Of a stretch of DNA of 50,829 nt, positions 14,414 through 37,803 are shown in pieces (positions within the stretch are counted from its first letter, which is position 1; each line of letters starts with the position of its first letter). The DNA is from Bacteroidales bacterium (GTDB taxonomy: Bacteria; Bacteroidota; Bacteroidia; Bacteroidales; JAGOPY01), in assembly GCA_019429045.1 (NCBI GenBank), contig JAHYJL010000003.1:1-50829 (forward strand), written 5' to 3'. The notes under the pieces are model-generated. The model saw nothing but the letters and a program-made list of their open reading frames with translations. It did no database searches and was not told the DNA's origin. A program made the position numbers and the translations under genes.

Positions 14414-16897
14414 ATGGAAGCCGCTAACCAATTTGATCTGACCGACGAGCTAAAAAATGCCATTCATATTGCACAGGCACTGGCCCGTGAAAATGCCCAG
14501 GAAACATTTTCGCCCGGTCACCTGCTCAAAGCCATACTGCATAAGGATGTGGGCCTGATTCCATTACTTGATTCGCTCGGGAAAGATTATTTTTTCATGG
14601 AAGAATGGGCCGATGTGAGAATTGAAAGCTATCCCAAGACTTCAAAGATACCCGAAAACCCCGTTGCAGATGACAAGGTAGTGGCAGTTCTGATGGAGGC
14701 CGATAATATCCGTTTAAAACTATCCAAAGATAAGGCTGATCCGGTTTGCGTATTGATCTCACTGGCCACTGCCGGAGTAGGTTTCACTTTTGAACAGCTA
14801 AAAACCTTCCCATTAAATCCCAATGAGGTGCTGACCGCGGTGATCGAAAAGCTGGACCTCCAGGCAACATTGGGTCAGGCAGATAAGAGAGCAGCAGGGG
14901 ATAAGAAAGATGCTTCGTCCAACGCATTGCTTAAATATTGCATTGATAAGACAGCCGCAGCCCGACAAGGGAAACTCGACCCGGTGATCGGTCGTGACCG
15001 GGAGATCCGGATGATCGCGGAAATCCTGGGCCGGCGATCCAAACCAAATGTCATTATCATCGGTGAACCGGGCGTCGGCAAAACAGCCGTGGTAAACGGT
15101 TTTATACAAGAGGTGGCAAACAACAATTCCGGGAACGTTGCCGGCAGCCAGATCTTTGAACTGGACATGGGCGAACTGATCGCGGGGGCCGCTTATAAAG
15201 GCGAAGTGGAAGACCGCCTTAAAAAGATCATCCGGGAGATCAAGCAATTTGACAAAGCCATCCTGTTCATCGATGAAATCCATGGCCTGATTGACCGTCA
15301 TGGCGGCGCCTCCGGTGCAGCCAACCTGCTCAAACCGGAGCTGGCCAAAGGCGAACTGACCATTATTGGCACCACTTCGTTTGATAATTACAGCAAACAT
15401 ATTGAATCGGATGACGCCTTCAACCGCAGCTTTGAAACCATCAAGCTGGAAGAACCTGACGTGGAAATGACAGCCAGGATGCTGGCCGGCATTATGCCCC
15501 ACTACGAACAGCATCATAATCTGCGGGTCGATCCCGAAGTGATCAAAGAATCCATCCGCCTTTCAAAACGGTATAATAAGGAAAGAAAACTCCCTGATGC
15601 GGCCGTCGACTTGCTTGACCGGACCATGGCCGTTGTCAGGATGACCGGAGAATCTTCCCAGGCCGATATTCAGGAATTGAAAGAGAAATTTGCAGCGCTT
15701 GCAGCCAACAGGGAAAAACTCGAAGAAGTTTCGCTGGTAAAGGAATTACAATGGTTTTACCATTTCATGCGCCATAAATTGAGCCATATCCTGTTCGCCC
15801 AACTGGACGATGAAACAGATGTGATGAAAATGGATTCATCAAAGGAACTCATCAAGCATCTGAAAAACCTGATGGTCAGGCTGGAAGAACTGGCCAAACA
15901 TAAACACGATGCCATTGAGAAGGCTGATGTGGCAGCGGTTATTTCATTCAAAACTGGCATCCCCATCGGCAAGCTACAGACACAGGAGCGGGAAAGGCTG
16001 ATGCACACGGAAGAGCATCTGAAACTAAGGGTGGTCGGGCAGGATCACGCGATCCGCAATATTGCCGAAGCCATTCTTGAATCGCGTTCGGGGCTGAACA
16101 AGCCCGGCCAGCCCATCGGGTCCTTCTTCTTTCTCGGGCCAACGGGCACCGGAAAGACGGAGCTGGCTAAAACCCTGGCTGAATTCCTTTTCCAGGATGA
16201 ATCGGCATTGCTCCGGTTCGATATGTCTGAATTTAAAGAAGAGCACTCTGCCGCCTTGCTTTATGGGGCCCCTCCGGGTTATGTGGGTTACGAAGAAGGC
16301 GGGCTGCTGGTCAACAAAATCAGACAAAAACCCTATGCCGTGGTACTCTTCGACGAGATTGAAAAAGCACACCCATCGGTATTCGATATTTTCCTGCAAA
16401 TCCTGGATGAAGGCAAACTGAGCGACCGGCTCGGGAAAGAGGGCGATTTCTCCAACGCAGTCATTCTGTTCACATCCAACATCGGCAGCGATTTTATAGT
16501 GGAATCCTTTGCGAAAAATATAATCCCCAAATCCACCGAATTGCTGGACATCATGACCCGTTATTTCAGACCTGAATTTTTAGGGAGGCTGACAGAGATC
16601 ATACCCTTCTCCCCGATCACGGAAAAGATGGTCCTGAAGATATTTGAAATTCACCTGAAAGGACTTACAAAGTTACTCGATGTGCAGGGAATACGCCTTG
16701 AAATTACTGATGAGGCCAAACAGAAACTGGCCATGATGGGATTTACACCGAAATACGGTGCAAGGCCCATTGTGGGTGTGATCAGGAACCAGCTTCGAAG
16801 GCCGCTGTCAAAAATGATCATTTCAGGCAAGATCAGCAAAGGAACCCTGGTGAAACTGATTTCAGATGACAAAGGAGAATTGAAATGGGAACCATAA
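14414..16897 (+). CDS. tssH: T6SS ClpV/TssH AAA+ ATPase (subtype iii)
   Basis: Two AAA modules (GEPGVGKT/LFIDEIH; GPTGTGKT/LFDEIEKAH), GAPPGYVGY pore loop; first gene before tssB and tssC. Confidence 0.92.
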   Translation: MEAANQFDLTDELKNAIHIAQALARENAQETFSPGHLLKAILHKDVGLIPLLDSLGKDYFFMEEWADVRIESYPKTSKIPENPVADDKVVAVLMEADNIRLKLSKDKADPVCVLISLATAGVGFTFEQLKTFPLNPNEVLTAVIEKLDLQATLGQADKRAAGDKKDASSNALLKYCIDKTAAARQGKLDPVIGRDREIRMIAEILGRRSKPNVIIIGEPGVGKTAVVNGFIQEVANNNSGNVAGSQIFELDMGELIAGAAYKGEVEDRLKKIIREIKQFDKAILFIDEIHGLIDRHGGASGAANLLKPELAKGELTIIGTTSFDNYSKHIESDDAFNRSFETIKLEEPDVEMTARMLAGIMPHYEQHHNLRVDPEVIKESIRLSKRYNKERKLPDAAVDLLDRTMAVVRMTGESSQADIQELKEKFAALAANREKLEEVSLVKELQWFYHFMRHKLSHILFAQLDDETDVMKMDSSKELIKHLKNLMVRLEELAKHKHDAIEKADVAAVISFKTGIPIGKLQTQERERLMHTEEHLKLRVVGQDHAIRNIAEAILESRSGLNKPGQPIGSFFFLGPTGTGKTELAKTLAEFLFQDESALLRFDMSEFKEEHSAALLYGAPPGYVGYEEGGLLVNKIRQKPYAVVLFDEIEKAHPSVFDIFLQILDEGKLSDRLGKEGDFSNAVILFTSNIGSDFIVESFAKNIIPKSTELLDIMTRYFRPEFLGRLTEIIPFSPITEKMVLKIFEIHLKGLTKLLDVQGIRLEITDEAKQKLAMMGFTPKYGARPIVGVIRNQLRRPLSKMIISGKISKGTLVKLISDDKGELKWEP

Positions 16898-16929
16898 AAA
16901 TTATATATAACCTTTAAAACTATCACATT

Positions 16930-17376
16930 ATGGCAAAAAAGACTGTTATTACACAAGTCCAGGATGTTGAAGTCAATGAATCAGTCATTGAATTTCCTCA
17001 AAACCGTACTTTTCTGACCGAGCAGTTGACTTACGATGAGCCTTCAAAACCGGAAATTGTAAGGAATCTCAAATCGGAAGATGATGTTTTTGAGCATTAC
17101 AAACCAAAGGTGGATGTGGAATTTCAAAACAGCGAAGGGGCGAGTAAAAAAGAGACCCTTTCATTCAAAACCCTGGCTGATTTCGGTGTAAAGGGACTTA
17201 CTGCACAGAGCGCTTTTCTTCAGGAACTGGATATCCAGAAAGAAGAATACCAGAAGATCATCAAGCAAATGAAAAGCAACAAGCAGCTCAGACAGGCTAT
17301 TTCAGACCTGGAAACCAAGCAAGCCTTGCTGAACACGATCCTGGCCCTGCTGAAGGAACTTGAAGCATCCAAGTAG
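16930..17376 (+). CDS. tssB: T6SSiii contractile sheath small subunit
   Basis: PQNRT...EQLT...KPEIV...VFEHYKPKVDVEF pattern of Bacteroidota TssB; position between tssH and tssC. Confidence 0.85.
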   Translation: MAKKTVITQVQDVEVNESVIEFPQNRTFLTEQLTYDEPSKPEIVRNLKSEDDVFEHYKPKVDVEFQNSEGASKKETLSFKTLADFGVKGLTAQSAFLQELDIQKEEYQKIIKQMKSNKQLRQAISDLETKQALLNTILALLKELEASK

Positions 17377-17419
17377 TTTTTAAAAATTAAAGAAAATCAT
17401 CACTAAAAACATTATCGCC

Positions 17420-18805
17420 ATGGCAGATCCGATGAAAGAACATAAGCCTGAAAATTTTAAAGAAAAAATGAAAGAGGAGCTGGGTAAAATAGCCGAACCA
17501 GTCAAACATCTTGAAGAAAGCCTGAAACACCTGGAGAAATACGGTGGGTTCGACCTGATCGAAGGAACGATTGACGGCACCCAGAAACTCAATCCGGAAA
17601 AAAAGGCCACCAAGCAAATATTCCTTTCCGAGACACAGTTCAAAGCCCAGCGGGAGCGGCTGAAAAAAACCCTTGAACTTTGGGCAAGCCTGCTCTCCAA
17701 AGAAGCTTCTGTAGCAGAATATGTGGAAGAATGTGAAAAAGGAGCAGAAATTGCTGATAAAACCCTCAAGGAAAACCTGAAAAAAGCGCTCGAGCAGACC
17801 AAGAACCTGGAACGCTCCTACCGTTCGGTAGCGCTTTTCTTTAAAAATACTGAAAACGATAAGGTAAAGTATGTTGCCATCATGAATGCATCACCCGACC
17901 AACTGAAAGACCTTGACAACTCGAGGTTTATCGATGCAGTGGCAGCAGAATTGAGCCGTAACTACGACCGTCTCTCGCTGAAGAATAATTACAGCCTCGT
18001 GGTTGTCCCGGGTTACCTGGGATCCAAAGCCGTATTAAATAAATGGGGAAAGGCTGCCCATAAAAATAAAGTCCTTATGGTCACTGATTTCAGAAACCTG
18101 GAGGATGTGGAAAGCACCATGGAACTGTTCCAGGAAGAGAGCCTGAATGGTGGGGACGCCCACCTGGCCAATGTCATCATGGCCTGTAACTGGCTTGTTG
18201 GCAGGGGAAAATATGCAGAGGTAGGTGAAGATGAAGATCTTTATGTACCACCTTCCAGTGCATTGGCAGGAAAACTATACAATACTGAGGGGATTCCCAT
18301 CGCACAAGGCGCCGCGGGAAAGAAATTCGGGACATTGAACGAAGTCAGCGGTGCGCGTTATGACCTTAAAAAGTCGGAAATCGCCGCCCTGAACGACCTG
18401 AACCTGATCCCGATGGTCTTTGAAGACAACCGCGTGATGGCTTTCTCCAATAAAACACTGTTCAACGGGAACAATATCGGCTTGCAGGAATACCCGATCG
18501 TCAGGGTGTTCGACTGGGTCGGAAAGGTCTTTATGAACTTCTTCAACGATGTGGCTTTTCAAAAGTTCAACAAATCACTCAGAGACGACATCTGGCAGCA
18601 GATTGTCGATTTTCTGAACGATTACAAGGGGAAACTTTTCGAAGACTATACCTTTGACCGGGATGGCATCCGTCAGGACCCCGTTACCAAGGATATAACG
18701 ATCCAAGTAAATATCAAGCCTTTCTTTGCCGCCAAGAATTTCTACATCAAACTGGAAGGCCACGATGGCCGGGAAGGCAGGGAATGGAACCAGGAAGTAG
18801 ATTGA
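17420..18805 (+). CDS. tssC: T6SSiii contractile sheath large subunit (DUF5458)
   Basis: YGGFD, LERSYRSVALFF, NYDRL...NNYSLVVVPGYLGS, CNWLVGR, PPSSALAG, VRVFDW, PFFAAKNF. Confidence 0.9.
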   Translation: MADPMKEHKPENFKEKMKEELGKIAEPVKHLEESLKHLEKYGGFDLIEGTIDGTQKLNPEKKATKQIFLSETQFKAQRERLKKTLELWASLLSKEASVAEYVEECEKGAEIADKTLKENLKKALEQTKNLERSYRSVALFFKNTENDKVKYVAIMNASPDQLKDLDNSRFIDAVAAELSRNYDRLSLKNNYSLVVVPGYLGSKAVLNKWGKAAHKNKVLMVTDFRNLEDVESTMELFQEESLNGGDAHLANVIMACNWLVGRGKYAEVGEDEDLYVPPSSALAGKLYNTEGIPIAQGAAGKKFGTLNEVSGARYDLKKSEIAALNDLNLIPMVFEDNRVMAFSNKTLFNGNNIGLQEYPIVRVFDWVGKVFMNFFNDVAFQKFNKSLRDDIWQQIVDFLNDYKGKLFEDYTFDRDGIRQDPVTKDITIQVNIKPFFAAKNFYIKLEGHDGREGREWNQEVD

Positions 18806-18861: not shown

Positions 18862-19254
18862 ATGTCAGTTTACATCAAAATCGACGGGTTAGCAGACCGT
18901 GAGGTAGTGACCCTGCATTATGACCTGCATCAGGAAACTGATGTGGAAGGAAGGCCATCGGCCATTACACGTGGTGGCAATATCAGTGTAACTACCAAAT
19001 CGCTGAACGATGGCAACTCAGACTTGTTTGAATGGGCCTGTGATCCTTACAGTGCCAAAAAAGGCAAGATTGAATTTGAGAAACGGGATGGCACCAATAT
19101 GAAAACCCTCGAGTTCGAGGATGCATATATGATAAGCTATTCCGAGACTTACAATGCATTGGATGCAAATTCCCAGATGGAAAATTTCATTATTTCGGCC
19201 AAAAAGGTATCCATAGGTGGTGTATTCCATGAAAATCCATGGGCAGAAAAGTAA
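18862..19254 (+). CDS. tssD: T6SS tube protein Hcp/TssD (copy 1)
   Basis: QETDVEGRPS...RGGNI, LFEW, KGKIEF, LEFEDAY..SYSE, ISAKK...H.NPW. Confidence 0.88.
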   Translation: MSVYIKIDGLADREVVTLHYDLHQETDVEGRPSAITRGGNISVTTKSLNDGNSDLFEWACDPYSAKKGKIEFEKRDGTNMKTLEFEDAYMISYSETYNALDANSQMENFIISAKKVSIGGVFHENPWAEK

Positions 19255-19323
19255 TCCCGCTTCCCTTTACGGGATAATGAAGGACTTATCTGTATTATAC
19301 AAGTTAATTAAATTAATTGTTGT

Positions 19324-19731
19324 ATGGTTTTCACCGGGGCTAAATTAGTCGAAGCGAAACTGATTCTGGCAGGTTCTGATCAGCCTATTAAGATATTTTC
19401 GTTTGATTACGGATTTACGCAATACACTGACGAAACCGGCAAGCCAACCGGTTACCCGACCGGGGGTACGATCAATTTTATGATTGAATCCACCCCTGAA
19501 ACGGTACTGATTGACTGGATGCTGGATGCTAAAGCGCTTAAAAACGGTAAGATTGAGATCGGAAATAAAGACAAAGTGATTGAATTTAAGAACGCTGCCT
19601 GCATCCAGTATCATGAATCGTTCAACCATATGGGCGGAGCGCAGCCCATGACGACCAGTTTTACCATTTCGGCAGAAGAAATCAAGGTTGGCGGCGCCCC
19701 TCCGTTTCAGCAAAAAAGGAAAACAGTCTGA
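19324..19731 (+). CDS. tssD: T6SS tube protein Hcp/TssD (copy 2, divergent)
   Basis: QYTDETGKP...GGTINF, DWM, KNGKI, IEFKNAACIQYHESF, FTISAEEI. Confidence 0.85.
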   Translation: MVFTGAKLVEAKLILAGSDQPIKIFSFDYGFTQYTDETGKPTGYPTGGTINFMIESTPETVLIDWMLDAKALKNGKIEIGNKDKVIEFKNAACIQYHESFNHMGGAQPMTTSFTISAEEIKVGGAPPFQQKRKTV

Positions 19732-19803
19732 TCCTGTTTTCTGTCCTTTTGCTAAGAGTCGATCCGCCAACCCATTTGAACACCGAATATAATATTATAA
19801 GGT

Positions 19804-21576
19804 ATGGCCTTAGCACAGAAGGTTAAAGTTTTGGTTGATGGTAAAAATACCATCAATGGCAGGGATGCGGGCGATTTTCTTGACCTGCATCTGCAGCAAA
19901 GCGTTTTCGGGCATCATTCGCTTGAAATTGTCTATCGTCGTGATCATTTTGAAGATGATGGCACATTCATCATGGATAAATCGGACCAGCTCTTCCTGGG
20001 ATGTTCTGTTTCACTTACCATTGAAGGAAGGGAGAATGAAAAGCTGGAATTCGACGGTGTTATCACGGGGGTGAAGGTCCGCAAGATGCATGATGCGCAA
20101 AGCGACACGGTCATCGTGGAAGCATCCAGCCCGGATATCTTTCTGAATGACGGAGAACACTGCAGGACATTTGAGGACAAGACGCTAAAGGCCATTGTCG
20201 ACAAGATCCTCGGTGAATACCAGCTGGACAGCAACAAGGTCAAACCTGAAAATGCCAGCGATGTGCTGTCGTATACCGTTCAATACAAAGAAAGCGCTTT
20301 CGCATTCCTGACAAGGCTGGCTTCCAAAAAGGCCCAGTGGTTTTATTATGATGGCAAGGAAATCATCTTTGGCGCCCGGGCCCAAAAGAAAGTAACGCTC
20401 GAATTTGGCGCCGATCTGTTTAATTTTGATTTCTCCTTGAAACTGGAAGATTTGAATTTCAAATATTTAGCATATGATTACTTTGAAAATAAAGTGATCA
20501 GCAGCGAATCAGGCGATAAGCAGATATCAAACCTTTCCACCAAAGCCAAATATGCCTACGATGTGTCTGAAAAAAAATTCAAGCATGATACGCAAAGCCT
20601 TTACAATCACAGCCTGACCAAATCAAAAGCCCAGGAACACCTCGACTCGCGTGTAAAATTGTTGAAAAGTGCTATGACTGCCGGGTTTATTTCGTGCAGT
20701 GGTTCCAGTGACGATGCTGACCTGGTGGCGGGCTGTGAAATCAATATCATTGAGAACTATGGCCAGGGAGATGATAAAAAACAGGTTGACCATGGTAATT
20801 ATATCATCACCAGCATCAGCCATTCATGTGACAGGACAGGCAACTATCAAAACAGCTTTTCGGCTGTCCCGGCCGAAATTGAAGTACCTCCCTACTCATC
20901 TCCTCATGCCATACCATTCTGCGAAACACAGGCAGCCAAGGTGATAGACAACAACGATCCCGATCAATTGGGAAGGATCCGTGTCCAGTTCATATGGCAA
21001 GAGGAAGAAAACACCATGACCCCCTGGATCAGGCTCGTAACCCCCCATGCCGGGGACCAGAAAGGGTTCTATTTCATACCGGAGATTGGGGAAGAGGTAC
21101 TGGTAGCATTCGAGGGCGGCAACGCCGAAAAGCCATACGTGATCGGCAGCATGTTTCATGGAAAGGCAGCGCCCGACAGCGCCTGGGTAAATGCAGACGA
21201 CGACATAAAAGCCATCCGCACCCGCAGCGGGCATACCATTGAATTCTCCGATAAAGATGGTAGTGAAGAGCTAAAAATCTATGATTACAATAAAGACAAC
21301 TATGTTATCACCCTGCAATCGCATTCCTCCAAAATCAAAATTGAATCAAAAGGAGACATTGAAATGGAGGCTACGGGCGATCTAAAGATAAAAGCTGCCA
21401 ATATAGAGATGGAATCCCAAAGCGACTTTAAGATCAAATCAACCAATGTGAAGGTTGATTCCACGTCACAATATGAAGTAAATGCCATGAATATCAATAA
21501 TAAAGCGAATGCCCAGGTAAAAATTGAAGGTGGGGCCATGATCGAACAAAAAGCCGCTATCATCAAAATAAATTAA
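19804..21576 (+). CDS. vgrG: T6SS spike protein VgrG/TssI
   Basis: VQYKESAFAFLTRLA, DNNDPDQLGRIRVQF, TPWIR, FIPEIGEEVLVAFEGGNAEKP, IRTRSGHTI, beta-helix C-terminus with no toxin extension. Confidence 0.95.
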   Translation: MALAQKVKVLVDGKNTINGRDAGDFLDLHLQQSVFGHHSLEIVYRRDHFEDDGTFIMDKSDQLFLGCSVSLTIEGRENEKLEFDGVITGVKVRKMHDAQSDTVIVEASSPDIFLNDGEHCRTFEDKTLKAIVDKILGEYQLDSNKVKPENASDVLSYTVQYKESAFAFLTRLASKKAQWFYYDGKEIIFGARAQKKVTLEFGADLFNFDFSLKLEDLNFKYLAYDYFENKVISSESGDKQISNLSTKAKYAYDVSEKKFKHDTQSLYNHSLTKSKAQEHLDSRVKLLKSAMTAGFISCSGSSDDADLVAGCEINIIENYGQGDDKKQVDHGNYIITSISHSCDRTGNYQNSFSAVPAEIEVPPYSSPHAIPFCETQAAKVIDNNDPDQLGRIRVQFIWQEEENTMTPWIRLVTPHAGDQKGFYFIPEIGEEVLVAFEGGNAEKPYVIGSMFHGKAAPDSAWVNADDDIKAIRTRSGHTIEFSDKDGSEELKIYDYNKDNYVITLQSHSSKIKIESKGDIEMEATGDLKIKAANIEMESQSDFKIKSTNVKVDSTSQYEVNAMNINNKANAQVKIEGGAMIEQKAAIIKIN

Positions 21577-23294: not shown

Positions 23295-23582
23295 ATGGAA
23301 GAATTGGAAATTGTATTGTTTTACCAGGATACGGAATATTCCATGAAGGTGGAAGATCTGACTAAACCTGTAGTTGATGCTATCAAAGAAATCGTAGAAG
23401 CTTTACAGCTTTCATGGCGGGATGGCGGGGGCAATCCCATTACCTACCACCTCGGCCGTACGACAGGCTCTGAGGAGGAAATACTTAAACCGCGCATAAA
23501 AGGGAAAGACCAGACATTATATGACTATAACATCAGGAGCGGCGACAGGCTTATCCTGATCAAGGAAGTGATCGCCGGATAA
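23295..23582 (+). CDS. ubiquitin-like beta-grasp protein (YukD/EsaB-like) ending in Gly
   Basis: 95 aa; QTLYDYNIRSGDRLIL closely parallels ubiquitin RTLSDYNIQKESTLHL; C-terminus ...EVIAG. Confidence 0.85.
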   Translation: MEELEIVLFYQDTEYSMKVEDLTKPVVDAIKEIVEALQLSWRDGGGNPITYHLGRTTGSEEEILKPRIKGKDQTLYDYNIRSGDRLILIKEVIAG

Positions 23583-25826: not shown

Positions 25827-25837
25827 CAGTCATATTG

Positions 25838-28801: not shown

Positions 28802-31291
28802 ATGAAACTGCTCAATCCCTGTCATATGCAACTACATCTATTAATGTCGCACATTTTCCGGATGATTAAATTACCGGGACTGGTTTTGCTGGTATTTCTG
28901 ATTACTTTCATTACGCATGCACAAAAGCGTGCAGATGCCGATCTGCAAATCATCGACATTCAGATGAAGCCTGAAAACCTGGCCAAGCTAAGTGATACGA
29001 TGACCGTTAAGTTCAACCTGATGAGACCGGGAGGGACTGAAGATGCAGACAGAATTCTGGAATTGTCACCAGGGGATTCCATGAGGGTTTCTGTGAAGGA
29101 ATTCCTCGGCAGAAAGGAGGAGAGGATAAAACCCGTATTTATCCCGGGCAGCCTGAAAAAGTTAAGGGATCATGGTAAAATGAGATCTGAAATCCCGGAA
29201 GACTATTACATTTCATTGCTGATTGACAAAAGCGGTTCTATCAATCAGCATGACATGGATAAAATAAAATCGGCTATTTATGAGCTGGCCGGGATGGTTA
29301 AAACCGGCAATTTATTTTATTCCTGGTTTGATGAAGATATTTCCGAAAGCAGGGTGGTTACCCAGGCCAACATAAACGATCTCGATTTCCATGTTTCCAG
29401 CACCGGCAGTTCCTGCATGTACAATGCCATTTTCACGAAAATGATGGAATTTGATTCCACGAAAGATGTGCCCAATCTTCAGTATGAGGGGGCTTACAGG
29501 CGAAACAGGGCTGTTGAGATGGCGCCGGATGGTAATAAATTCCTGGTTATCATTACAGATGGCCGTAATGACATACAACAGAACCCAAAATATCACAACA
29601 CCCTGTTCAGGGTCATCCGCGAACCGGAACTCATCAATACCGCCGAATTATACAGAAACAAATTATTCATTTACGCTATCAGTTTCGGCGGGGAATTGCT
29701 GGATGAAGCTTTCCTGGAGATGATAACGGCCGCCAGCGGCAATCGTTATGGCAATATACTGACCAGTCCCGACAATATTCTGGAGGACTTTAACAGCCTT
29801 GGTAAAAAAATCGCGGAGGAAAAATGGGACTATGAAATTCGTTTAAGGTATGAAAATCCAAAAAAATACAGGGGAGAGACACGTACCCTGCATTTAGAAA
29901 TCAACTCCTATAAACCGGATCTCTTCGTTGCATACGGTCAGGCAACCTATGGGGAAGGTTACGGCAACTCCCTTTACCCGATGACCATTGGTGAGCCAAA
30001 ACGCCAGGTCATGGTCATGCTCGGAGGCCTTGTCGCAGGGATCATCATCTTTCTGCTGGTGATGTTCATTATACAATTGATCATCCCTTTGATCAAGAAT
30101 AAGATATTTGTCATAAAATATGTCAAGAGATATAAACCACGGGAGCACGAATTATTCAAAGAATGCCAGTTTTGCGGAGATCCGCTGAATCCCGGCGACA
30201 AGGTGGTGGTCAAATGCAAGCATGTCGTTCACCATTTATGCTGGAAAGAATATGGACATATGTGCCCGGAATATGGGCAAAATTGCAACGATGGCCAGGA
30301 AAATTTCTTTGACATTACAGATCCCTTCTCCAAAAAGAATAAGATCTATTACCTGAGCTGGGTGCTATATGGCATGCTGGGCGGTTTCCTGTCCTGGTTG
30401 CTATATGTGGCACTGATCAAGTGGGAACAGGTCTTTGCATTCAGCATATGGCTAACCGAGTGGATCAGGCCAACCATTACAGAAAGCAACCTCGGTTCTT
30501 TCAAGTTTAAGATAGCGCCATTCCTGATCGTGGGCACGCTGATGGGATTCTTTCTTACCGCGTTCTTCTCCTTTGTGGAGGAATACCGCCATAAAAACCT
30601 GATGATTTACGGCAAGATACTGCTCAGAAGTATCCTGGGCGGGGTTGCCGGATTTGTCGCGTTTCTATTGGGAAGCATTATCCTGATCCTGATCAACAGG
30701 CCCGCTACAGTCTATTTCGATTGGATCCCGTGGATATTCTTCGGAGCCGCCATTGGCCTGGTCATGTCCATTAAAACCACTATTGTCTGGAAGCACGGGC
30801 TTATCGGCGGATTGATCTCCATCATCTTTTGTTTTATCGTTATTTATGCCTTTATCGGGGAGCTTGAGGAAAATGCCATCCTGGTAGGTATTATGATATA
30901 CGCGGCAGGATTAGGTGTATCGATTGCCACCATCAGGCTGCAGTCAGAGCACTTCTTCCTGAAGATACTGCAGGGGAAAAAGAATCAGGATATCATCCCG
31001 GTCCATAAGTGGATGAGTTCCTCCGGAGGCCATAATGAAGTGTATCTGGGCAGAAGTTTCGCCTGCGAGATTCAGATGAACTGGGAAAAAAACAATGAAG
31101 AGATCGCACAAAAGCATTCCAAGATGTATATCAATACCAGGGGGGTGCCGGTTATCACCAACCTGGAAATCGGCAAGACAACCAATTTCAACGAACGGTT
31201 TGATCTGGATACCGGAAAAGAATACGAGCTTTACAATGGCGTGAGGTTTAAAATCGGACAAACTGTATTTCAATATATTGAGACAGATTAG
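28802..31291 (+). CDS. vWA - TM - RING finger - multi-TM - FHA-like protein (candidate membrane E3 ligase)
   Basis: MIDAS DKSGS and IITDG; RING-like CQFC-x13-CKHVVHHLCW-x6-CP-x5-C (30164-30286); several TM helices; C-terminal LGRS...H...ELYNGVRFKIG. Start may be 28862. Confidence 0.82.
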   Translation: MKLLNPCHMQLHLLMSHIFRMIKLPGLVLLVFLITFITHAQKRADADLQIIDIQMKPENLAKLSDTMTVKFNLMRPGGTEDADRILELSPGDSMRVSVKEFLGRKEERIKPVFIPGSLKKLRDHGKMRSEIPEDYYISLLIDKSGSINQHDMDKIKSAIYELAGMVKTGNLFYSWFDEDISESRVVTQANINDLDFHVSSTGSSCMYNAIFTKMMEFDSTKDVPNLQYEGAYRRNRAVEMAPDGNKFLVIITDGRNDIQQNPKYHNTLFRVIREPELINTAELYRNKLFIYAISFGGELLDEAFLEMITAASGNRYGNILTSPDNILEDFNSLGKKIAEEKWDYEIRLRYENPKKYRGETRTLHLEINSYKPDLFVAYGQATYGEGYGNSLYPMTIGEPKRQVMVMLGGLVAGIIIFLLVMFIIQLIIPLIKNKIFVIKYVKRYKPREHELFKECQFCGDPLNPGDKVVVKCKHVVHHLCWKEYGHMCPEYGQNCNDGQENFFDITDPFSKKNKIYYLSWVLYGMLGGFLSWLLYVALIKWEQVFAFSIWLTEWIRPTITESNLGSFKFKIAPFLIVGTLMGFFLTAFFSFVEEYRHKNLMIYGKILLRSILGGVAGFVAFLLGSIILILINRPATVYFDWIPWIFFGAAIGLVMSIKTTIVWKHGLIGGLISIIFCFIVIYAFIGELEENAILVGIMIYAAGLGVSIATIRLQSEHFFLKILQGKKNQDIIPVHKWMSSSGGHNEVYLGRSFACEIQMNWEKNNEEIAQKHSKMYINTRGVPVITNLEIGKTTNFNERFDLDTGKEYELYNGVRFKIGQTVFQYIETD

Positions 31292-31312: not shown

Positions 31313-32170
31313 ATGAGAAAAGCATTCATAACATCGCTCCTGACGATTGTCGTCACCCTCGGTCTTTCGGCTTCCGACCTGAAAGGTTACCCCAGGAAAT
31401 CCCTGTTTGTGAACCTGTCAGCTGATTATTCACGGTTGTATAATAAAACGATTTATAACGACTCGCCATGGAACGCCCAGGGGGGGCTTGGTTACAGTTT
31501 CGAAGCAGGGTACCTGATGCGGTTGCGAAAATCAGTGAGCCTCGGTTTCGGCGCAGGCCTGAGTTCATACTACAGTGAAATCAAGATGGATTCATATCAA
31601 ACAACATATCCAACTCTTGATGTTGACGGGGATAGTTATACCGAGTTCATCCAGGCAAATGGATTGGTGGAATCAACCCGGATCACCACATTAGACATAC
31701 CGGTATTTCTTGAACTTGGCAATGCCAACACCAGCAAGGTCAGCTATTATGTCAGGCTTGGAGTAAAGATATCAACGCCTGTCGCGTATAATTTCACTCA
31801 TTCAGGCAGCATGTCGGTCAGTGGAAACTACGCGCAATATTTTGTCCGGCTGGAAGGCATCCCGGAGCTGGGTTTTGTCGATAATGCCCCGGTAATCAAA
31901 TCATCGGAATATGATCTCAACCCGGTGAACCTCTCGGTATTGTTGGCCGGCGGCATCACCATTCCTGTTTCGGATTACATCATATTCAAGCTGGGGGCCG
32001 ATCTCAACTATGGCCTTATGAATATTTCATCTTATGAGCAGGAAGTGTCAAAGGATCCCGGTTTTATCAATATTTACAATAACCTGCTGACAGAGCCGAA
32101 CAGTAAAACAATCTGGCAGTCTGTAGGGTTTGAATTCGGGATCATATACATCCTGAAATCCATTTATTGA
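31313..32170 (+). CDS. outer-membrane beta-barrel protein (PorT/OMP_b-brl-like)
   Basis: Signal peptide, LDIPVFLE, DLNYGLMNI, terminal SVGFEFGIIY strand. Confidence 0.75.
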   Translation: MRKAFITSLLTIVVTLGLSASDLKGYPRKSLFVNLSADYSRLYNKTIYNDSPWNAQGGLGYSFEAGYLMRLRKSVSLGFGAGLSSYYSEIKMDSYQTTYPTLDVDGDSYTEFIQANGLVESTRITTLDIPVFLELGNANTSKVSYYVRLGVKISTPVAYNFTHSGSMSVSGNYAQYFVRLEGIPELGFVDNAPVIKSSEYDLNPVNLSVLLAGGITIPVSDYIIFKLGADLNYGLMNISSYEQEVSKDPGFINIYNNLLTEPNSKTIWQSVGFEFGIIYILKSIY

Positions 32171-32196: not shown

Positions 32197-33402
32197 ATGA
32201 AGGGAATATCTATCGGCAATCGAAACAGGAAATGGGGAGAGGAGGTCTTTTCCCTTTTGTCATGGTTTGATGAAACAAAGGTCAGAAATGCCAGTGTTAT
32301 GGTCGTTGGTGCCGGCGCATTGGGTAATGAGGTCATTAAAAACCTGGCGCTGTTTGGCATTGGCAATATCCTGATCGTCGACTTTGATACCGTAGAACAC
32401 AGCAACCTTTGCCGGTCGGTATTGTTCCGTCCCGAGGATGCCGAAGGCAATGCCATGAAAGCGGAAGTGGCCGCCAAAAGGATCAGCGAGATCAATCCAT
32501 ATATAAACGTAAGTTACATTGCCGGGGATATCGGCACCGATGTGGGCCTGGGCCATATCCGGAAAATGGATCTTGTCATCGGCTGCCTCGACAGCCGGCT
32601 GGCGCGTTACCTGATCAACCGGAGCTGCTTCAGGGCCAATAAAACATGGATAGACGGAGGTATTGAAAACCTGGAAGGCAACGTGAGGATATTCACGCCC
32701 GGGGTCAATTGTTATGAATGCAGCCTGAACGAAGCCGACCTTGAAATGCTGTTTTACCGGACAGGATGTCCTGACATAGCCAAAATAAATGTGGTCCAGG
32801 GAAGGATTGCCACCACGCCTATCAGCTCATCCATCATCGGCGCCATACAAACGCAGGAGGCGTTGAAATTCATCCACGGTTTCAATGAAAATTCGGAGAA
32901 ATTCAAATGCAATACCCTGAACGGAAAAATGCTCAAATATGACGGCATGTACCTGACCCTGAAAAGCTACAGGCTGGAAAATTACGAAGAAGATTGCATG
33001 AGCCACGAAGTCTGGGAACCTGTAGTGAGAGGGGAAGGATTAAGCGCCGGTATGACCATCGCACAAGCCCTTGAAACCCTGAAGGGTTTGCTCGGATGCG
33101 ACGACGTTACTATTAACCTGATGAATAACAAGCTGATATATCAGCTTGTCCCGGAATCGACCGATGAGGAGATCAATGTGATCCTGCCCGAATCCAAAGT
33201 GTCTGCGTATATAGAAGAAAACAACATAACCAAAGATCCCAGGGAAAGAGTCTTTCAAAGATTTTACGAAAGCATTGATGCTGATTTCCCGTATCCGCAC
33301 CTGACACTCAGGGAAATTGGTATACCTTATTTTGACGTCCTGAACATAACGGCAGGATCCGAAGTGCAATATGTTGAACTTTCAGGCGATGAAACCCACT
33401 AA
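32197..33402 (+). CDS. ThiF/MoeB-family E1-like ubiquitin-activating enzyme
   Basis: VVGAGALGNE, DFDTVEHSNLCRSVLF, KAE, GCLDSRLAR, CYEC, candidate catalytic Cys191 (RTGCP), C-terminal extension. Confidence 0.92.
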   Translation: MKGISIGNRNRKWGEEVFSLLSWFDETKVRNASVMVVGAGALGNEVIKNLALFGIGNILIVDFDTVEHSNLCRSVLFRPEDAEGNAMKAEVAAKRISEINPYINVSYIAGDIGTDVGLGHIRKMDLVIGCLDSRLARYLINRSCFRANKTWIDGGIENLEGNVRIFTPGVNCYECSLNEADLEMLFYRTGCPDIAKINVVQGRIATTPISSSIIGAIQTQEALKFIHGFNENSEKFKCNTLNGKMLKYDGMYLTLKSYRLENYEEDCMSHEVWEPVVRGEGLSAGMTIAQALETLKGLLGCDDVTINLMNNKLIYQLVPESTDEEINVILPESKVSAYIEENNITKDPRERVFQRFYESIDADFPYPHLTLREIGIPYFDVLNITAGSEVQYVELSGDETH

Positions 33403-34324
33403 GAACCTGGCTAAATCGATAAAAGCGAACATCTCCGACATCAAGGCGGAGGTGATCATGGCCGACCTGGCCGACCGGGGGATGGATGCTGATAAAATGC
33501 TGGTTGCTTGCAAAGGGCTGTTCAGAAGGAATTATGAAAAAGATGTGGCCAATGTTCAATTTGACCAGGTCATAGATTATTTGGTCTTCCAGCTTTCCCG
33601 CGACGGGCTATATGATTTACTGCCTGAAGGGCTTTTTCATGAGATGTGCATTTTCAGCAGCCTGGGTTCGGAAGAGCGAAGAAAGCAGTTTGCAAGGCAA
33701 AAGCAGGAAGAGGCGAATGCCAGGAAGTTCTTTTTGCCCTATGAAAATGAATTCTTACAGCAACGGGTCAGAATTGAGCAGGAGATTATCCGTCTGCACA
33801 AAGATCCGCTCGGTGCATTTAAAAGTCTGTTTTCAAGAAAAAGTATTTTCCCCGATGATTATCACCGGAGGTTCCTGAAATTCTATGCTTTTTCAGGCGA
33901 AATCAAGGGTAATATTGAACTGACAGCCGCTGCTCTCTCAGAAATACTTGAAAAAGAAGTAGTTGCCAGAAGCTATTACAGTGATTTGAGAATTGATTGT
34001 CCGGATGACAAAGGCTCGAATATACTGGGTGAAAATTTTATCAGCAGTGAAGGGTTCATTGAAAACCAGCTTTACTGGGAATTTACCATCGTCATTGACG
34101 AGAATGCTGAAATAGACCGGTATGCCGCCATGGATAAAGGTTTCATACAAGCCCTGGTCACCAGGTTTTATGACACATATGTTCCTTTTGAGATAGAAAC
34201 AGTGACGAAATTCGACTGCCGGGCAGCACAGCCCTTCATGCTTGGCGAAAGATCATCACTCCCCGCCGGAAGCCTGCAGGATCAATTACAGGAATGTTAC
34301 CTTGGCTACAATGTTACACTATAA
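33389..34324 (+). CDS. tssG: T6SS baseplate subunit TssG
   Basis: LSRDGLYDLLPEGLFH, EEANARKFFLPYENEF. Start overlaps the E1 stop (ATG 33389, or 33371). Confidence 0.88.
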   Translation: MKPTKNLAKSIKANISDIKAEVIMADLADRGMDADKMLVACKGLFRRNYEKDVANVQFDQVIDYLVFQLSRDGLYDLLPEGLFHEMCIFSSLGSEERRKQFARQKQEEANARKFFLPYENEFLQQRVRIEQEIIRLHKDPLGAFKSLFSRKSIFPDDYHRRFLKFYAFSGEIKGNIELTAAALSEILEKEVVARSYYSDLRIDCPDDKGSNILGENFISSEGFIENQLYWEFTIVIDENAEIDRYAAMDKGFIQALVTRFYDTYVPFEIETVTKFDCRAAQPFMLGERSSLPAGSLQDQLQECYLGYNVTL

Positions 34325-34363
34325 GACAGCATATAATCATTCAACAACAGAAAATACCCTGCC

Positions 34364-35449
34364 ATGAGAGAAAAAAATGAATACAAGCAAATAAACTGGA
34401 CTGACGGGATGAAGATCAACAAGGATCATTTTATCGGCCTGGAAAACTATTTCACCCAATGTGATGCGGAGATCAGAAGGATGAACATCGATCAATACAG
34501 CTATGGATTGCTCCCATTGACCGATAAAAATGACACGAACCTTGAATTCGAGCTAATGACGGATGATCAGAATCATCTGAAGGTAAAACTCAAGAAATGC
34601 CAGGCCATAGACCCGCAGGGGTACCGGATTGACATTTCAGGCGAAAGCCTGGAGGCAACCTTCAGTTTATCTCAATTCCAGGAAAGCTCATTTTACCTGG
34701 CCATATCAGCAGATCCTTTTACAAGGGTGGCCCACGGGCAGGCCGATGCCGGGGAAAGCCAGCTCCGACAACCTTTCGTGGTACCGGAATATAAATTGCA
34801 CCTTGCACCGTCAACCATGAATATTTCATCCGCTTTCGGGAATACCATCATGCCGCTGGGCAAGATTATGATCATAAACAACCGGCCCGAAACTGACCGG
34901 AACTACATTCCACCCTGTATGTCGGTCAACAGCCACCCTGAAATGATCAGATTTTTCGATTCCGTTCATCAAAACATCATCGCACTGGAAAGAAATATCG
35001 TAGAGCTCATTTCCGAAATCAATCTCAAAACGACTTCCAATGCCCTGATCAACATTATCCTGCACATTGCCGGGAGCGTACTGCATCATTTGAATGGCAA
35101 GATAACAGAATACAGATGGTTCACCGCCACCAGGCCGCCCATCATACTTATATCCAATATTATCAGCCTGGCGCGCACGGTCAGAAATGCCTTCGACACC
35201 CGGATACCTGAGGAACGGGAAAGATTGCTGAATTACCTTTCGGACCATTTCGACATCAATCCCGCCAAGTTCAAACAATTGCTGGATGTGACCATCGGCA
35301 TCGATTATCAGCACAATGATATCAGGGAATCGCTGGTGAAAGCAGAAGACTTTATCACTGTATTTTCACAACTGATCAACGAATTAAAGAAGATGGAATT
35401 CATTGTTGGTGAGCCAAGGAAGAAACGCATTGATATCATTATCCGCTGA
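34364..35449 (+). CDS. tssK: T6SS baseplate subunit TssK (subtype iii)
   Basis: INWTDGMKINKDHF, YGLLP, CQAI...GYRIDI, YIPPCMSV.SHP, Y.HNDI. Confidence 0.88.
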   Translation: MREKNEYKQINWTDGMKINKDHFIGLENYFTQCDAEIRRMNIDQYSYGLLPLTDKNDTNLEFELMTDDQNHLKVKLKKCQAIDPQGYRIDISGESLEATFSLSQFQESSFYLAISADPFTRVAHGQADAGESQLRQPFVVPEYKLHLAPSTMNISSAFGNTIMPLGKIMIINNRPETDRNYIPPCMSVNSHPEMIRFFDSVHQNIIALERNIVELISEINLKTTSNALINIILHIAGSVLHHLNGKITEYRWFTATRPPIILISNIISLARTVRNAFDTRIPEERERLLNYLSDHFDINPAKFKQLLDVTIGIDYQHNDIRESLVKAEDFITVFSQLINELKKMEFIVGEPRKKRIDIIIR

Positions 35450-35928
35450 TGAGCTTCAAAAATTACAAAATACCGCTCGATTTCAGCGAGATCATGGATG
35501 CCGGCAGGGCTGAACAGGATCACAGACGGTCTGCACATCTGTCGATTAAAAGAACTGACTCCCTGAAAAAGTCAATTGATGAAAATATAGAACTTGTATT
35601 GACGACACACCACGGGGAGCACAAGCACAATAAGGATTACGGTTTTATTTTATGGGAGCGCGAATTTGAAAATATTGAGATTGAGAAATTCAACACCCAT
35701 AACAACCCGAAGCAGGGCATAGAACTGATGTTACGAAAGGCGCTGACCAAATACGAGCCCCGCCTGAAAAATATCAATGTCGAGATCCTGTTCATTTACA
35801 AGAAAACCTTCAAAGGCAAGCGCATCAAATATTTTGTGGAACTTACCGTAAAGGGGGCCATTGCGAACAAGCTGGAGGAACCTTACGAAAAATCATTTCA
35901 GTTCACCATGGGGCCTTTATTAAAGTAG
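35449..35928 (+). CDS. tssE: T6SS baseplate gp25-like subunit TssE
   Basis: YKIPLDF, SIDENIELVLTT..GE...YG..LWE, YEPRLKNI; TGATG stop/start overlap with tssK. Confidence 0.88.
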   Translation: MSFKNYKIPLDFSEIMDAGRAEQDHRRSAHLSIKRTDSLKKSIDENIELVLTTHHGEHKHNKDYGFILWEREFENIEIEKFNTHNNPKQGIELMLRKALTKYEPRLKNINVEILFIYKKTFKGKRIKYFVELTVKGAIANKLEEPYEKSFQFTMGPLLK

Positions 35929-35955
35929 TAACAGGGAAGATCAATAAAGATTGTA

Positions 35956-37803
35956 ATGGAAAACAGGAACGATATAAAAAAGAGGATGATGGCGGTTGCC
36001 GCTAAAACATGGGGGTTGAGCAGCCGGGAGATGGAATCCATCGATCCGCTGATACCGCTGCTAATTGAGGCCAACGCCGCCGAACTGGAAAAGGTTTCCG
36101 GCTCCGTAGATGAGGCGGGGCAGCGCATGGCGGCGAAGCTGATGGAGATGCTGACCCCGGAAAACCTGCTCAACCCGGCGCCGGCCATGGGAATCCTGCA
36201 GGCGCTTCCGTTTGATCCCACGGGAAGTATCGATGAAGACAACCAATTTTACTATTTCAAAAGAAATCCTTTTGAAGATGGCGAAGCAGACCTCGAGATA
36301 TTTTTTACACCTGTAGCCGAACACAGGCTTTTCAACGGAAAAGTCGATTTCATCGCATCCGGGAATACTTTGTCGCGCACCGAGGAGATGGGGGAAAAAA
36401 GAGTGGTGGCGAAAAACGCTTACGGCAGGAATTTGTCGAATGAACTCTGGATCGGGGTCAGCCTTCATAAGTCGGTACGTTCTCCCGAAGGATTGTCTTT
36501 TTACTTTGAAACCGAAAACCTGAGCGACAGCGAGGAGCGGGTCTTTTACCAGGCGCTGCAAAAAGCGCAGTGGGAAATAAATGGCACTGCCATTGAAACG
36601 AAGCCGGGATACTATGATAAGGATAGCACGCTCCGGGGCAGGAAAATCACTTTTCCGCACACCGATTTCAACCGGTCGCACACCGTTTCACAACATGTGC
36701 TGGATTTTTACAGGAAACACTTCGTTTCGGTGGCCAATAATCCATGGGATTCAATCATCAGCCAGGACGCCTATCTCAAGTATCCGGACGAATTCCAGAA
36801 AATATTCCATCCGGATGATCTCAAACCACTTACCAACAGGTTATTGTGGTTCAAAATCCGGTTCCTGCCGCATATCCCCGGGCATATCCCCGACCGGGTC
36901 CGTTGCAGCATCAACTGTTTCCCTGTCATAAACCGCCGTAAGGAGAAGTCGGTCATTTCAGGCCTGGACCGGATCAAGGAACTCCGGCTGAATCCATACG
37001 AAGTTTTCTTTGATTTAGCTGAAATACACTGCGACAGTAAACTACAGGTGATTGTCGGCGACCAGCTTCCTGCAGATATGGAGGGCAAAGCGCTGCTGAC
37101 CCTTCGAAAGGACAACATCGGCAGGTTCAACACCACGAACGCGGTGGAAAAAATCCAGCAGATGATCGATGCCTACCGGAATGATTATCCCGCTTTTGCA
37201 AAGATAAAGGGGATTGACCACGAGACCATCGACAAGCTTTACGACGCCATCAAACCATTTGAGCATGCCACCGATCACCTGCAGGATTTTGCCTCGGGCA
37301 CCACTCCTTACCTGATGTTGCGGACAGATGCCGGCAAAGAAAGTGCGGAGGTGGAGGTCAGTTACTACCTTACCTGTGGCAGCCTGGGCAACGGGATCAT
37401 GAAGGGGATGCATATTAATTACGAAAGCGCAGAATTGCTCAGGGACAGGATCCTTTTAATGACCACCACGATGGGCGGAACCGACCGGAAAAAAGACGAG
37501 GAGCTGATCCGCAGTTTCCGGTATGCTTTGCTGACCAGGGGGAAGATCGTCACAATGGAAGATATCAGGGCCCTGACCGAGGCGCAGTTTGGACGCTTTG
37601 CCGAATCCATCGATGTGAAAAAAGGAGCCGCCATGTCGCCCGACTATGGTTCCGGGCTGCAGCGCGTCATCGAGATAACGGTCAGGTTAAAAAGGGACAG
37701 TCAGCTCACGCCGGAAGAAATCAAATACCTGAAGGATGACCTGGAGCAGCAACTGGTGGAAAGATCCACGAACGTGATGCCGTTCAGGGTGGTTTGCAGT
37801 TGA
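35956..37803 (+). CDS. tssF: T6SS baseplate subunit TssF
   Basis: IKKRMM..AAKTWG, DPLIPLLIEA, LTPE...PA..IL.A.P, INCFPVINR, YALLTRGKIVT.EDI. Confidence 0.9.
   Translation: MENRNDIKKRMMAVAAKTWGLSSREMESIDPLIPLLIEANAAELEKVSGSVDEAGQRMAAKLMEMLTPENLLNPAPAMGILQALPFDPTGSIDEDNQFYYFKRNPFEDGEADLEIFFTPVAEHRLFNGKVDFIASGNTLSRTEEMGEKRVVAKNAYGRNLSNELWIGVSLHKSVRSPEGLSFYFETENLSDSEERVFYQALQKAQWEINGTAIETKPGYYDKDSTLRGRKITFPHTDFNRSHTVSQHVLDFYRKHFVSVANNPWDSIISQDAYLKYPDEFQKIFHPDDLKPLTNRLLWFKIRFLPHIPGHIPDRVRCSINCFPVINRRKEKSVISGLDRIKELRLNPYEVFFDLAEIHCDSKLQVIVGDQLPADMEGKALLTLRKDNIGRFNTTNAVEKIQQMIDAYRNDYPAFAKIKGIDHETIDKLYDAIKPFEHATDHLQDFASGTTPYLMLRTDAGKESAEVEVSYYLTCGSLGNGIMKGMHINYESAELLRDRILLMTTTMGGTDRKKDEELIRSFRYALLTRGKIVTMEDIRALTEAQFGRFAESIDVKKGAAMSPDYGSGLQRVIEITVRLKRDSQLTPEEIKYLKDDLEQQLVERSTNVMPFRVVCS

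Follow-up and report, generated by a model that had tools for sequence, protein, structure and literature searches.

A Bacteroidales type VI secretion operon carrying a ubiquitin-type cascade with membrane-anchored RING and JAMM proteins

Two envelope anchors of type VI secretion systems (T6SS) are known, TssJLM and, in Bacteroidota, TssNQOPR, together with one well-known post-translational switch, in which phosphorylation of threonine is read by Fha. This Fha/TagH-PpkA-PppA switch is that of the proteobacterial T6SSi, and the T6SSiii of Bacteroidota was reportedly described by Russell in 2014. We analysed a T6SSiii operon of a Bacteroidales bacterium in which genes for a ubiquitin-type cascade lie between vgrG and tssG. 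It is located on contig JAHYJL010000003.1 (assembly GCA_019429045.1), positions 1 to 50,829 of which are the whole stretch of DNA that was analysed, called the window below. Judged by gene content and order in related genomes, the block of genes that includes the cascade is no accidental insert but belongs, as an integral and conserved part, to a distinct T6SS class.

Among the prokaryotic systems that use ubiquitin-type chemistry, Bil is reported to target a phage tail protein, and to our knowledge none of Bil, Bub and CBASS Cap2/Cap3 has a RING E3. Burroughs, Iyer and Aravind are said to have proposed in 2011 that a YukD-like ubiquitin-fold modifier (Ubl) is conjugated by E1/E2/RING/JAB operons, and the cassette described here may already be drawn in that work. 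A protein-level modification/de-modification element was reportedly also proposed by Aravind and colleagues. We know of no conjugation enzymes for YukD or EccD. The 2012 review from the same group (PMC3417536) does not, in its available part, link E1/E2/RING/JAB-type operons to secretion, and the accessible part of PMC12637312 deals with YukD/EsaB and with the ubiquitin-like domains of EccD in type VII secretion.

For the T6SS of Bacteroidota, the available part of PMC10781749 describes anchoring by TssNQOPR, with TssN docking TssK and tssN lying between tssK and tssG, and reports the membrane complex, or part of it, in all 443 T6SSiii systems detected there. The gut Bacteroidales architectures GA1-GA3 carry tssN and other Bacteroidales-specific genes, according to the same part of that paper. 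The 2024 survey of gut isolates (PMC10942478) gives, in the portion available, three architectures, none of which was found in Segatella/Hoylesella when GA1-3 consensus sequences were used.

The operon and its ubiquitin-type block

Listing of the open reading frames (ORFs) showed that the 18 ORFs from 14327/14414 to 37803 are all on the + strand and make up a single tight co-directional T6SSiii operon. Sixteen of its 17 junctions are spacers of 1-72 bp or a 1-nt overlap, and the whole range is -32 to 72 bp, as expected from a sequence-only reading of this DNA that had described 18 co-directional, closely spaced genes. That reading had also placed the block 1 bp after vgrG and had the E1 stop overlap the tssG start, and both statements were borne out: vgrG runs to 21576 and is followed by a gene that begins at 21578, while E1 ends at 33402 and overlaps tssG by 32 nt (start 33371) or by 14 nt (ATG 33389). 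The second start, at which the alignment to canonical TssG begins, is more likely. Its claim that a Ubl, an E2, a JAMM protein, a RING protein and an E1 lie between vgrG and tssG stood for all five at motif level, but the block (21578-33402) holds eight genes, with these five ubiquitin-type parts among them.

The genes of the operon are listed below. Counts per 80 loci come from a scan for the E2 in species-representative genomes, in which 130 stretches matched and 118 of them encode an E2 relative; 80 loci were kept with flanks of at most 10 kb, and the counts are limited by contig ends and by these flanks.

14414..16897, + strand: ClpV/TssH AAA+ ATPase (TTG at 14327 opens the ORF, ATG at 14414; Pfam AAA_2 2e-56, AAA_lid_9, ClpB_D2-small)
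16930..17376, + strand: TssB, small sheath subunit (Pfam T6SS_VipA 6.2e-4, under the cut-off; relatives at the same position in 34/80 loci)
17420..18805, + strand: TssC, large sheath subunit (Pfam TssC 1.9e-170), the sole TssC found in a search of the window's genome
18862..19254, + strand: Hcp/TssD, copy 1 (Pfam TssD 1e-33)
19324..19731, + strand: Hcp/TssD, copy 2 (Pfam TssD 5e-32)
19804..21576, + strand: VgrG/TssI spike (Pfam Phage_base_V 4.5e-25, Phage_GPD 9.1e-22)
21578..23251, + strand: secreted immunoglobulin (Ig)-repeat protein with a C-terminal sorting domain of the type IX secretion system (T9SS) (Pfam Ig_7 7.8e-15, SprB, Por_Secre_tail 1.7e-10; TIGR04183; N-terminal hydrophobic segment)
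23295..23582, + strand: Ubl of 95 amino acids (aa) that ends VIAG-stop (beta-grasp model, profile match to ubiquitin, terminal Gly)
23611..24369, + strand: UBC-type E2, 252 aa (HPN motif, Cys147)
24420..25826, + strand: bitopic envelope protein (by hydropathy, a signal peptide, a predicted coiled coil within a long periplasmic region, one C-terminal transmembrane segment and a Lys-rich tail)
25835..28783, + strand: membrane-anchored JAMM/Rpn11-like isopeptidase (by hydropathy, a periplasmic N-terminal half, transmembrane segment 545-563 followed by RRKK, and a cytoplasmic JAMM domain)
28802..31291, + strand: polytopic RING E3 (N-terminal hydrophobic segment, periplasmic vWA domain 138-324, transmembrane segment 410-428, cytoplasmic RING-H2 455-495, about six transmembrane segments, cytoplasmic FHA fold at about 722-829)
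31313..32170, + strand: outer-membrane beta-barrel (Pfam OMP_b-brl_2 3.6e-8; signal-like N-terminus)
32197..33402, + strand: E1, a ThiF/UBA-like adenylating enzyme with a C-terminal extension (Pfam ThiF 1.4e-53)
33371..34324 (likely start 33389), + strand: TssG, baseplate subunit (BLASTP 3e-35; relatives directly after E1 in 67/80 loci)
34364..35449, + strand: TssK, baseplate subunit (NCBIfam TssK 6e-12, under the cut-off; weak Pfam T6SS_VasE; 189 homologues)
35449..35928, + strand: TssE, gp25-like (Pfam GPW_gp25 1.2e-9)
35956..37803, + strand: TssF, baseplate subunit (Pfam T6SS_TssF 8.1e-7)

Pfam, NCBIfam and BLASTP searches showed that the T6SSiii tail and baseplate core (TssB, TssC, Hcp, VgrG, ClpV, TssE, TssF, TssG and TssK) is complete, the matches of TssB, TssK and TssF being weak or near threshold. 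The ORF at 33371-34324 had no family match and was accepted as TssG because of its BLASTP match (3e-35) to an ORF beside tssN in a canonical locus. The window's system thus resembles known T6SSiii in that ClpV, TssB, TssC, Hcp, VgrG and TssE/F/G/K are present and co-linear, with PAAR and adaptor genes nearby.

The alignment-based AlphaFold model of the Ubl has a predicted beta-grasp fold (mean confidence score, pLDDT, 89.7). Foldseek matched it to an ESX-5 complex entry, 7B9F (top match), to ubiquitin variants, Caldiarchaeum ubiquitin, SUMO, ISG15 and a bacterial Ubl, with template-modelling (TM) scores of about 0.6-0.75; the beta-grasp fold of the model is clear, but its nearest structural neighbour is not settled by Foldseek. 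The sequence profile favours ubiquitin itself. Its best solved relatives are single ubiquitin chains (E-values of 0.02-0.2 over DGR-L-DYNIQ...LHL), with lower E-values for polyubiquitin chains, and the match to Pfam YukD is weak (1.3e-3). The last residues before the stop are xIAG or xIPG in the Ubl relatives of 77 of 79 loci and, being already Gly-terminated, the modifier requires no processing. The alignment contains no invariant Lys, and chain building is therefore not indicated. The Ubl is like YukD and EccD of type VII secretion in being a beta-grasp protein tied to the assembly of a secretion machine, and its top Foldseek match is the entry cited for the EccD-like domain of TssN in the available part of PMC10781749, where TssN is said to resemble EccD. 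In contrast to YukD/EccD, the window encodes a full set of E1, E2, E3 and deubiquitinase (DUB), and its Ubl has a free C-terminal Gly.

In the E2, residues W132-H133-P134-N135 and C147 are invariant among 25 family members, and the family profile matches UBE2K and UBE2N at about 5e-6 with the HPN motif and the Cys aligned. The 41 relatives of the E2 in a large protein collection are without exception unnamed or called 'hypothetical'. Some relatives (P0021-P0023) have long C-terminal extensions rich in Glu, Lys and Arg, with lengths of 375-433 aa, and a 962-aa ORF is present in locus L003 (10001-12889); the Ubl, JAMM and RING genes of L003 seem split, possibly by assembly errors or decay. The family alignment of the E1 showed an invariant GxGxxG nucleotide loop, C172xxC175, C191 and C267. 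Comparison of its profile with the PDB gave UBA7/UBA6/UBA1 (3e-31 to 7e-27) ahead of MoeB (5e-25) and far ahead of bacterial BubCD (1e-11).

The JAMM domain has invariant E660, H732 and H734 (HxH), S742 and D745 in 28 sequences. Its best solved relatives are the Rpn11-like protein of the archaeon Caldiarchaeum (1.8e-6) and then Rpn11. The eight Zn ligands of the RING-H2 domain (C455 C458 C472 H474 H477 C480 C488 C495) are likewise invariant in 28 sequences, and weak PDB profile matches were obtained with the RINGs of RCHY1, RNF165, RNF38 and synoviolin. Pfam found VWA (1.7e-5) and, weakly, zf-RING_2 and Prok-RING_1 in this protein. At motif level the cascade of Ubl, E1, E2, RING and JAMM is complete and looks catalytically intact.

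Hydropathy and positive-inside residues placed the RING, FHA and JAMM domains in the cytoplasm and the vWA domain and two paralogous N-terminal domains in the periplasm; the RING and FHA domains are both assigned to the cytoplasmic side because an even number of transmembrane segments lies between them. The paralogous domains are the N-terminal periplasmic regions of the bitopic protein and the JAMM protein (BLASTP 5e-5 over 314 aa). No Pfam or NCBIfam match was found for the bitopic protein and the ESM Atlas gave nothing usable for it; a Dsc3_C match (2.8e-3) of the gut-clade bitopic protein was weak and was taken as chance. The identification of the JAMM and RING proteins as inner-membrane proteins with large periplasmic domains goes beyond the sequence-only reading, as does the absence of TssN and TssO described below.

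In the model of the E3 tail (pLDDT 72.6), all Foldseek matches shown contain an FHA domain. The first of them is the FHA domain of human RNF8 (E 2.5e-4, TM-score 0.67), which is itself an FHA-RING ligase. The tail profile matched the FHA domain of Bdellovibrio DgcB at E 0.08, and 38-48% of the nearest ESM Atlas cluster members carry Pfam FHA. Among the parts, the modelled FHA fold is the likeliest candidate for a reader of a substrate or partner. Two TssK homologues, P0099 and P0106 (Adhaeribacter aerolatus), of 496 aa, carry Pfam FHA and are TssK-FHA fusions in other Bacteroidota; by analogy, these suggest that FHA domains work beside TssK. The predicted complex of the E3 FHA domain with TssK scored 0.04 against a mark of 0.32 and counts for neither side.

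The cascade resembles Caldiarchaeum-type eukaryote-like systems in having a ubiquitin-fold modifier, an E1, a UBC E2, a RING E3 and a JAMM protein that is nearest to the Caldiarchaeum Rpn11-like protein, and the weak Prok-RING_1 match of its E3 is a likeness to prokaryotic RING operons. It differs from both in having as E3 and DUB two integral membrane proteins that also possess periplasmic domains, in the vWA and FHA domains of the E3, and in its position inside a secretion operon.

Linkage to T6SS genes and exclusion of TssN

Carriers of the block are mostly gut and rumen Prevotella/Prevotellaceae, Muribaculaceae, Bacteroidaceae and other Bacteroidales, and they include the cultured Bacteroides hominis Tbg-374 and Xylanibacter muris PMUR; like T6SSiii, the system is confined to Bacteroidota-type genomes. 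Relatives of the window's proteins were found in the 80 loci for Ubl (79), JAMM (75), RING (74), E1 (71), TssG (67), VgrG (59), Hcp (50) and TssC (43). The outer-membrane beta-barrel was found by sequence in 8/80 loci, while others have a similarly sized ORF at that position, and the Ig-repeat protein has relatives in only 4/80. The order was constant: vgrG, a variable stretch, Ubl, E2, bitopic protein, JAMM, RING, often a small outer-membrane protein, E1, tssG and tssK. The variable stretch of B. hominis consists of a PAAR-like DUF4280 protein and small ORFs, and loci of the gut clade add cytoplasmic proteins of about 350 aa after the E2 and of about 340 aa before the Ubl, neither with a Pfam match. 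The position of the block inside the operon is fixed down to about 45% E2 identity.

The sequence-only reading had held that the cascade belongs to the operon and is not there by accident, a view against which homologous blocks lying mostly without T6SS genes would have spoken. The neighbourhood survey agreed with it: at least one T6SS gene was present in 77 of the 80 E2 loci, in the same order, and of the 60 loci whose upstream sequence reached 9 kb or more, 56 had a T6SS gene there. The three exceptions are L020 and L040, which are short contigs, and L066, which is a full locus.

TssN (PF17555) had no match in the window's genome (2.89 Mb in 239 contigs, rated 94.4% complete) or in five other carriers. 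It was over the family cut-off in none of 45 further carriers, which with genome G216 gives 0/52 E2-type genomes, and the positive controls matched. Weak TssN matches of 19-25 bits occurred in 4/45 carriers; the one that was examined is an unrelated ORF of 696 aa with eight transmembrane segments and no T6SS neighbours. TssO (PF17561) was absent from 3/3 carriers examined and present in both controls. In unbiased samples, TssC was found in 7/301 genomes of the order and 14/401 of the phylum, the window's genome included. Of the 19 other TssC-positive genomes, 17 carry TssN, in each case without the E2, while in G216, which lacks TssN, the E2 lies about 9 kb from TssC. In genome G380 (C88:9786-10835, L101), from another part of the phylum, both TssN and the E2 are missing and the TssC-like gene is distant (100 bits); it may belong to another kind of contractile system. 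The window's system is therefore unlike described T6SSiii in having neither TssN nor TssO and in carrying the eight-gene ubiquitin and envelope block beside tssG, the canonical place of tssN. It is distinguished from GA1-GA3 by the same gene criterion, TssN being absent from Bacteroides hominis, Xylanibacter muris and the other carriers.

Comparison of TssC with the Pfam model gave 352-568 bits for the carriers (G216, two more, and the window with 568) and 676-799 bits for TssN-type genomes except G669 (501). A quick maximum-likelihood search with 51 sequences, which gave a tree with long branches, put the 13 TssN-type rows in a single clade (SH-aLRT 100) and all 37 carrier rows outside it; the TssC of the window thus lies outside the canonical clade. 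Because of this separation and of the difference in score, the two classes look like an old split and not like a recent cassette insertion. Within the gut and rumen TssC clade (L007-L080), sequences of Prevotella, Bacteroides hominis, Muribaculaceae, Rikenellaceae and Barnesiellaceae interleave on short branches, which suggests horizontal spread of the whole locus. Horizontal spread is known for the GA1/GA2 elements.

A proposed anchor or gate and its alternatives

We lean, by a little, towards a distinct T6SSiii architecture in which the membrane-anchored E3/DUB pair, with Ubl, E1 and E2, anchors or gates the machine. What we observed is the gene content, the catalytic motifs, the predicted folds and topology, the linkage to T6SS genes and the mutual exclusion with TssN; from there we infer the formation of a complex, an anchoring role, a substrate and an effect on secretion. 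The bitopic, JAMM and RING proteins, all three predicted to lie in the inner membrane with large periplasmic domains, and the outer-membrane beta-barrel would form, or belong to, an envelope-spanning anchor that docks the TssEFGK baseplate. Of the three cytoplasmic parts (Ubl, E1 and E2), the E1 would activate the Ubl and the E2 would carry it. At the docking site, on the cytoplasmic face of the anchor, the membrane RING-FHA ligase would attach the Ubl either to one of the T6SS components or to the membrane proteins, and the adjacent JAMM enzyme would take it off again; this reversible conjugation would gate assembly, firing, disassembly or the docking of the baseplate. Besides a regulatory role, a structural or anchoring one is suggested by the membrane topology together with the absence of TssN and TssO. 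A more specific version, which we regard as unlikely, is that E1, E2 and RING-FHA build the docking site enzymatically, in place of a genetically fused TssN: Ubl joined by covalent bonds to TssK/TssG, or to the envelope proteins at their Lys-rich cytoplasmic tails, would be a reversible, TssN-like, membrane-anchored beta-grasp platform that JAMM dismantles after firing.

Several points weigh against the anchoring and gating architecture. Locus L066 (Muribaculaceae; 9652-18320) has the entire Ubl/E2/bitopic/JAMM/RING/outer-membrane protein/E1 block and no T6SS gene in its 20.6-kb locus (within 10 kb), and its genome record of 2.0 Mb shows no TssC; the block therefore can probably stand apart from a T6SS, yet rarely does so in the sample. 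Most genomes examined are metagenome-assembled, and the absence of a gene is never certain in them. None of the 18 operon ORFs was named TssP, TssQ or TssR by Pfam/NCBIfam, and no dedicated profile search was made for these. The topology calls come from a simple hydropathy window and positive-inside residues and are crude. The case for a replacement of TssN is built on exclusion and topology, since profile comparison gave no homology of TssN to the Ubl or the RING protein (hhalign probabilities of 0.4% and 2.5%, with a TssN alignment of four rows), and such homology was rejected at sequence level. The E3 FHA consensus has G-M and A-x-x-H where, at positions that we take to be the phosphate- and pThr-contacting Arg and Ser, the canonical residues are G-R and S-x-x-H, although the window's own protein keeps G-R. 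Finally, the sequencing runs listed as containing the window are two sediment-metagenome DNA runs, with small shares, and no RNA run is listed.

The same evidence bears on the alternatives. The block could be a sensor and regulator only, likened to TagQRST-PpkA-PppA-Fha1 of Pseudomonas, in which the periplasmic vWA and coiled-coil regions sense envelope damage or cell contact, RING and JAMM switch the T6SS, and unrecognised proteins anchor it. The pairing of periplasmic domains with cytoplasmic enzymes, the FHA fold of the E3, the presence of opposing writer and eraser enzymes and the failure to find TssN homology are consistent with this account. However, no ORF among the 18 of the operon is left over, none looks like an additional membrane-complex protein, the genomes examined lack TssN and TssO, and an outer-membrane beta-barrel with three inner-membrane proteins exceeds what a sensor needs; we consider it rather improbable. 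The sequence-only reading had likewise seen the cascade as a stand-in for the PpkA/PppA/Fha switch. This is upheld in part, the FHA-fold tail of the E3 being one parallel. The locus is like Fha/TagH-PpkA-PppA in having a post-translational writer/eraser pair beside a T6SS and an envelope component with an FHA-fold domain on its cytoplasmic side, but Ubl conjugation is predicted instead, the residues taken to be those that bind pThr are not conserved in the family consensus, and no kinase or phosphatase family is among the Pfam matches listed for the window's ORFs. The non-conserved Arg and Ser and the lack of a kinase or phosphatase family among those matches speak, on sequence grounds, against a classical phospho-reader.

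Quite unlikely, in our estimate, is a self-contained conflict or selfish module (a Bil/Bub/Cap2-Cap3-like defence system or a protein modification/de-modification element) that merely resides in T6SS loci, its targets being phage or other proteins and not the T6SS. It would agree with L066, with the mixing of families in the gut-clade TssC tree, which suggests mobility of the whole locus, and with the bacterial E1/E2/JAB operons known in defence (10.1101/2024.11.21.623966, available part), which PMC3417536 treats, in the part available, as mobile and potentially selfish. It is opposed by the fixed position in the operon in 77/80 loci down to about 45% E2 identity, by the deep TssC split of the two T6SS classes and the exclusion of TssN, and by an E1 far nearer to eukaryotic UBA enzymes than to BubCD. 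The kinship with Bil and CBASS that the sequence-only reading had drawn was not supported: the PADLOC models did not match the E2, Ubl, RING or bitopic proteins, matched the E1 over the ThiF core only (about 27-150), and gave a weak JAB match (3.6e-6), while the score for the NCBIfam 6A-MBL cap2_3 model was far under its cut-off. ThiF-type E1 chemistry, a JAB peptidase and a Gly-terminated Ubl are shared with Bil, Bub and CBASS Cap2/Cap3, whereas the window's E3 and peptidase are membrane-anchored and those systems have no membrane anchoring; by the available profile models, the system is not a member of any of them. We give equally little credence to a cargo or recycling tag, by which Hcp, VgrG, effectors or the contracted sheath would receive the Ubl as a signal for loading or for ClpV-driven unfolding, with JAMM removing the tag as at the proteasome lid. 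Such a role would suit the best solved JAMM relatives, Rpn11 and the archaeal Rpn11-like enzyme, and the AAA+ unfoldase ClpV in the same operon, but tethering keeps the JAMM and RING domains at the inner membrane and so at a distance from most of the sheath, and the lack of an invariant Lys in the Ubl does not indicate chains.

Neighbouring genes and significance

Just downstream of tssF lies a convergent module whose parts are as follows.

39024..42330, - strand: putative effector module, made up of PAAR, a DUF4123 adaptor and three further ORFs
41770-42330, - strand: PAAR protein (Pfam PAAR_motif 8.9e-29)
41101-41757, - strand: DUF4123 adaptor (Pfam DUF4123 1e-24)
within 39024..42330, - strand: a 134-aa ORF, a 357-aa candidate effector and a 194-aa candidate immunity protein with a hydrophobic N-terminus, called from position alone, with no Pfam match

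From its position, this module is probably the effector/immunity set of the window's T6SS. Pattern matching found a hairpin with a T-rich tail at 19718-19742 (+) that overlaps the hcp2 stop and may be an attenuator between the highly expressed genes for sheath and Hcp and the remaining genes. The promoter/terminator scan of 19000-38900 was uninformative: 37 terminator-like sites were found against 20.7 expected, mostly within ORFs, and sigma-70 patterns are unsuited to Bacteroidota. Upstream of the L066 block, reading by eye found two ORFs with FHA-like N-termini and several with signal-peptide-like N-termini. Elsewhere in the window, at 10392-11875 (-), a baeRF protein (bacterial archaeo-eukaryotic release-factor family 3, 2.5e-42) lies directly upstream of an S30AE/ribosome-hibernation-like protein (2.6e-9), a pair unrelated to the T6SS; a small T9SS-sorted protein (42368-42796; 3e-10) and a full-length serpin (47539-48759; 4.1e-102) lie downstream of the T6SS region.

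A full-text search of the literature, with subscription-only papers and supplements outside its reach, gave no link between a T6SS and an E1/E2/RING/JAB cascade and did not find the term 'GA4', in keeping with the sequence-only reading, which knew of no described ubiquitin-controlled T6SS. This locus type appears to have neither of the two known envelope anchors. If the coupling of the cascade to the T6SS is functional, it would be a new principle of control or anchoring for contractile injection systems, and it would give a physiological context to prokaryotic eukaryote-like ubiquitin systems, which has been hard to find outside phage defence. Should enzymatic building of the docking site prove true, this would be the first secretion machine to have its assembly licensed by ubiquitin-type conjugation, a complete, eukaryote-like ubiquitin/E1/E2/RING/Rpn11 system of a bacterium with an assignable cellular job, and a fourth, overlooked T6SS architecture that is common in gut and rumen Prevotella and Muribaculaceae. 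The architecture is found at 118 places in species-representative genomes, cultured strains included, and genetics is therefore feasible. An unrecognised T6SS class would alter estimates of T6SS prevalence in Prevotella-rich gut and rumen communities.

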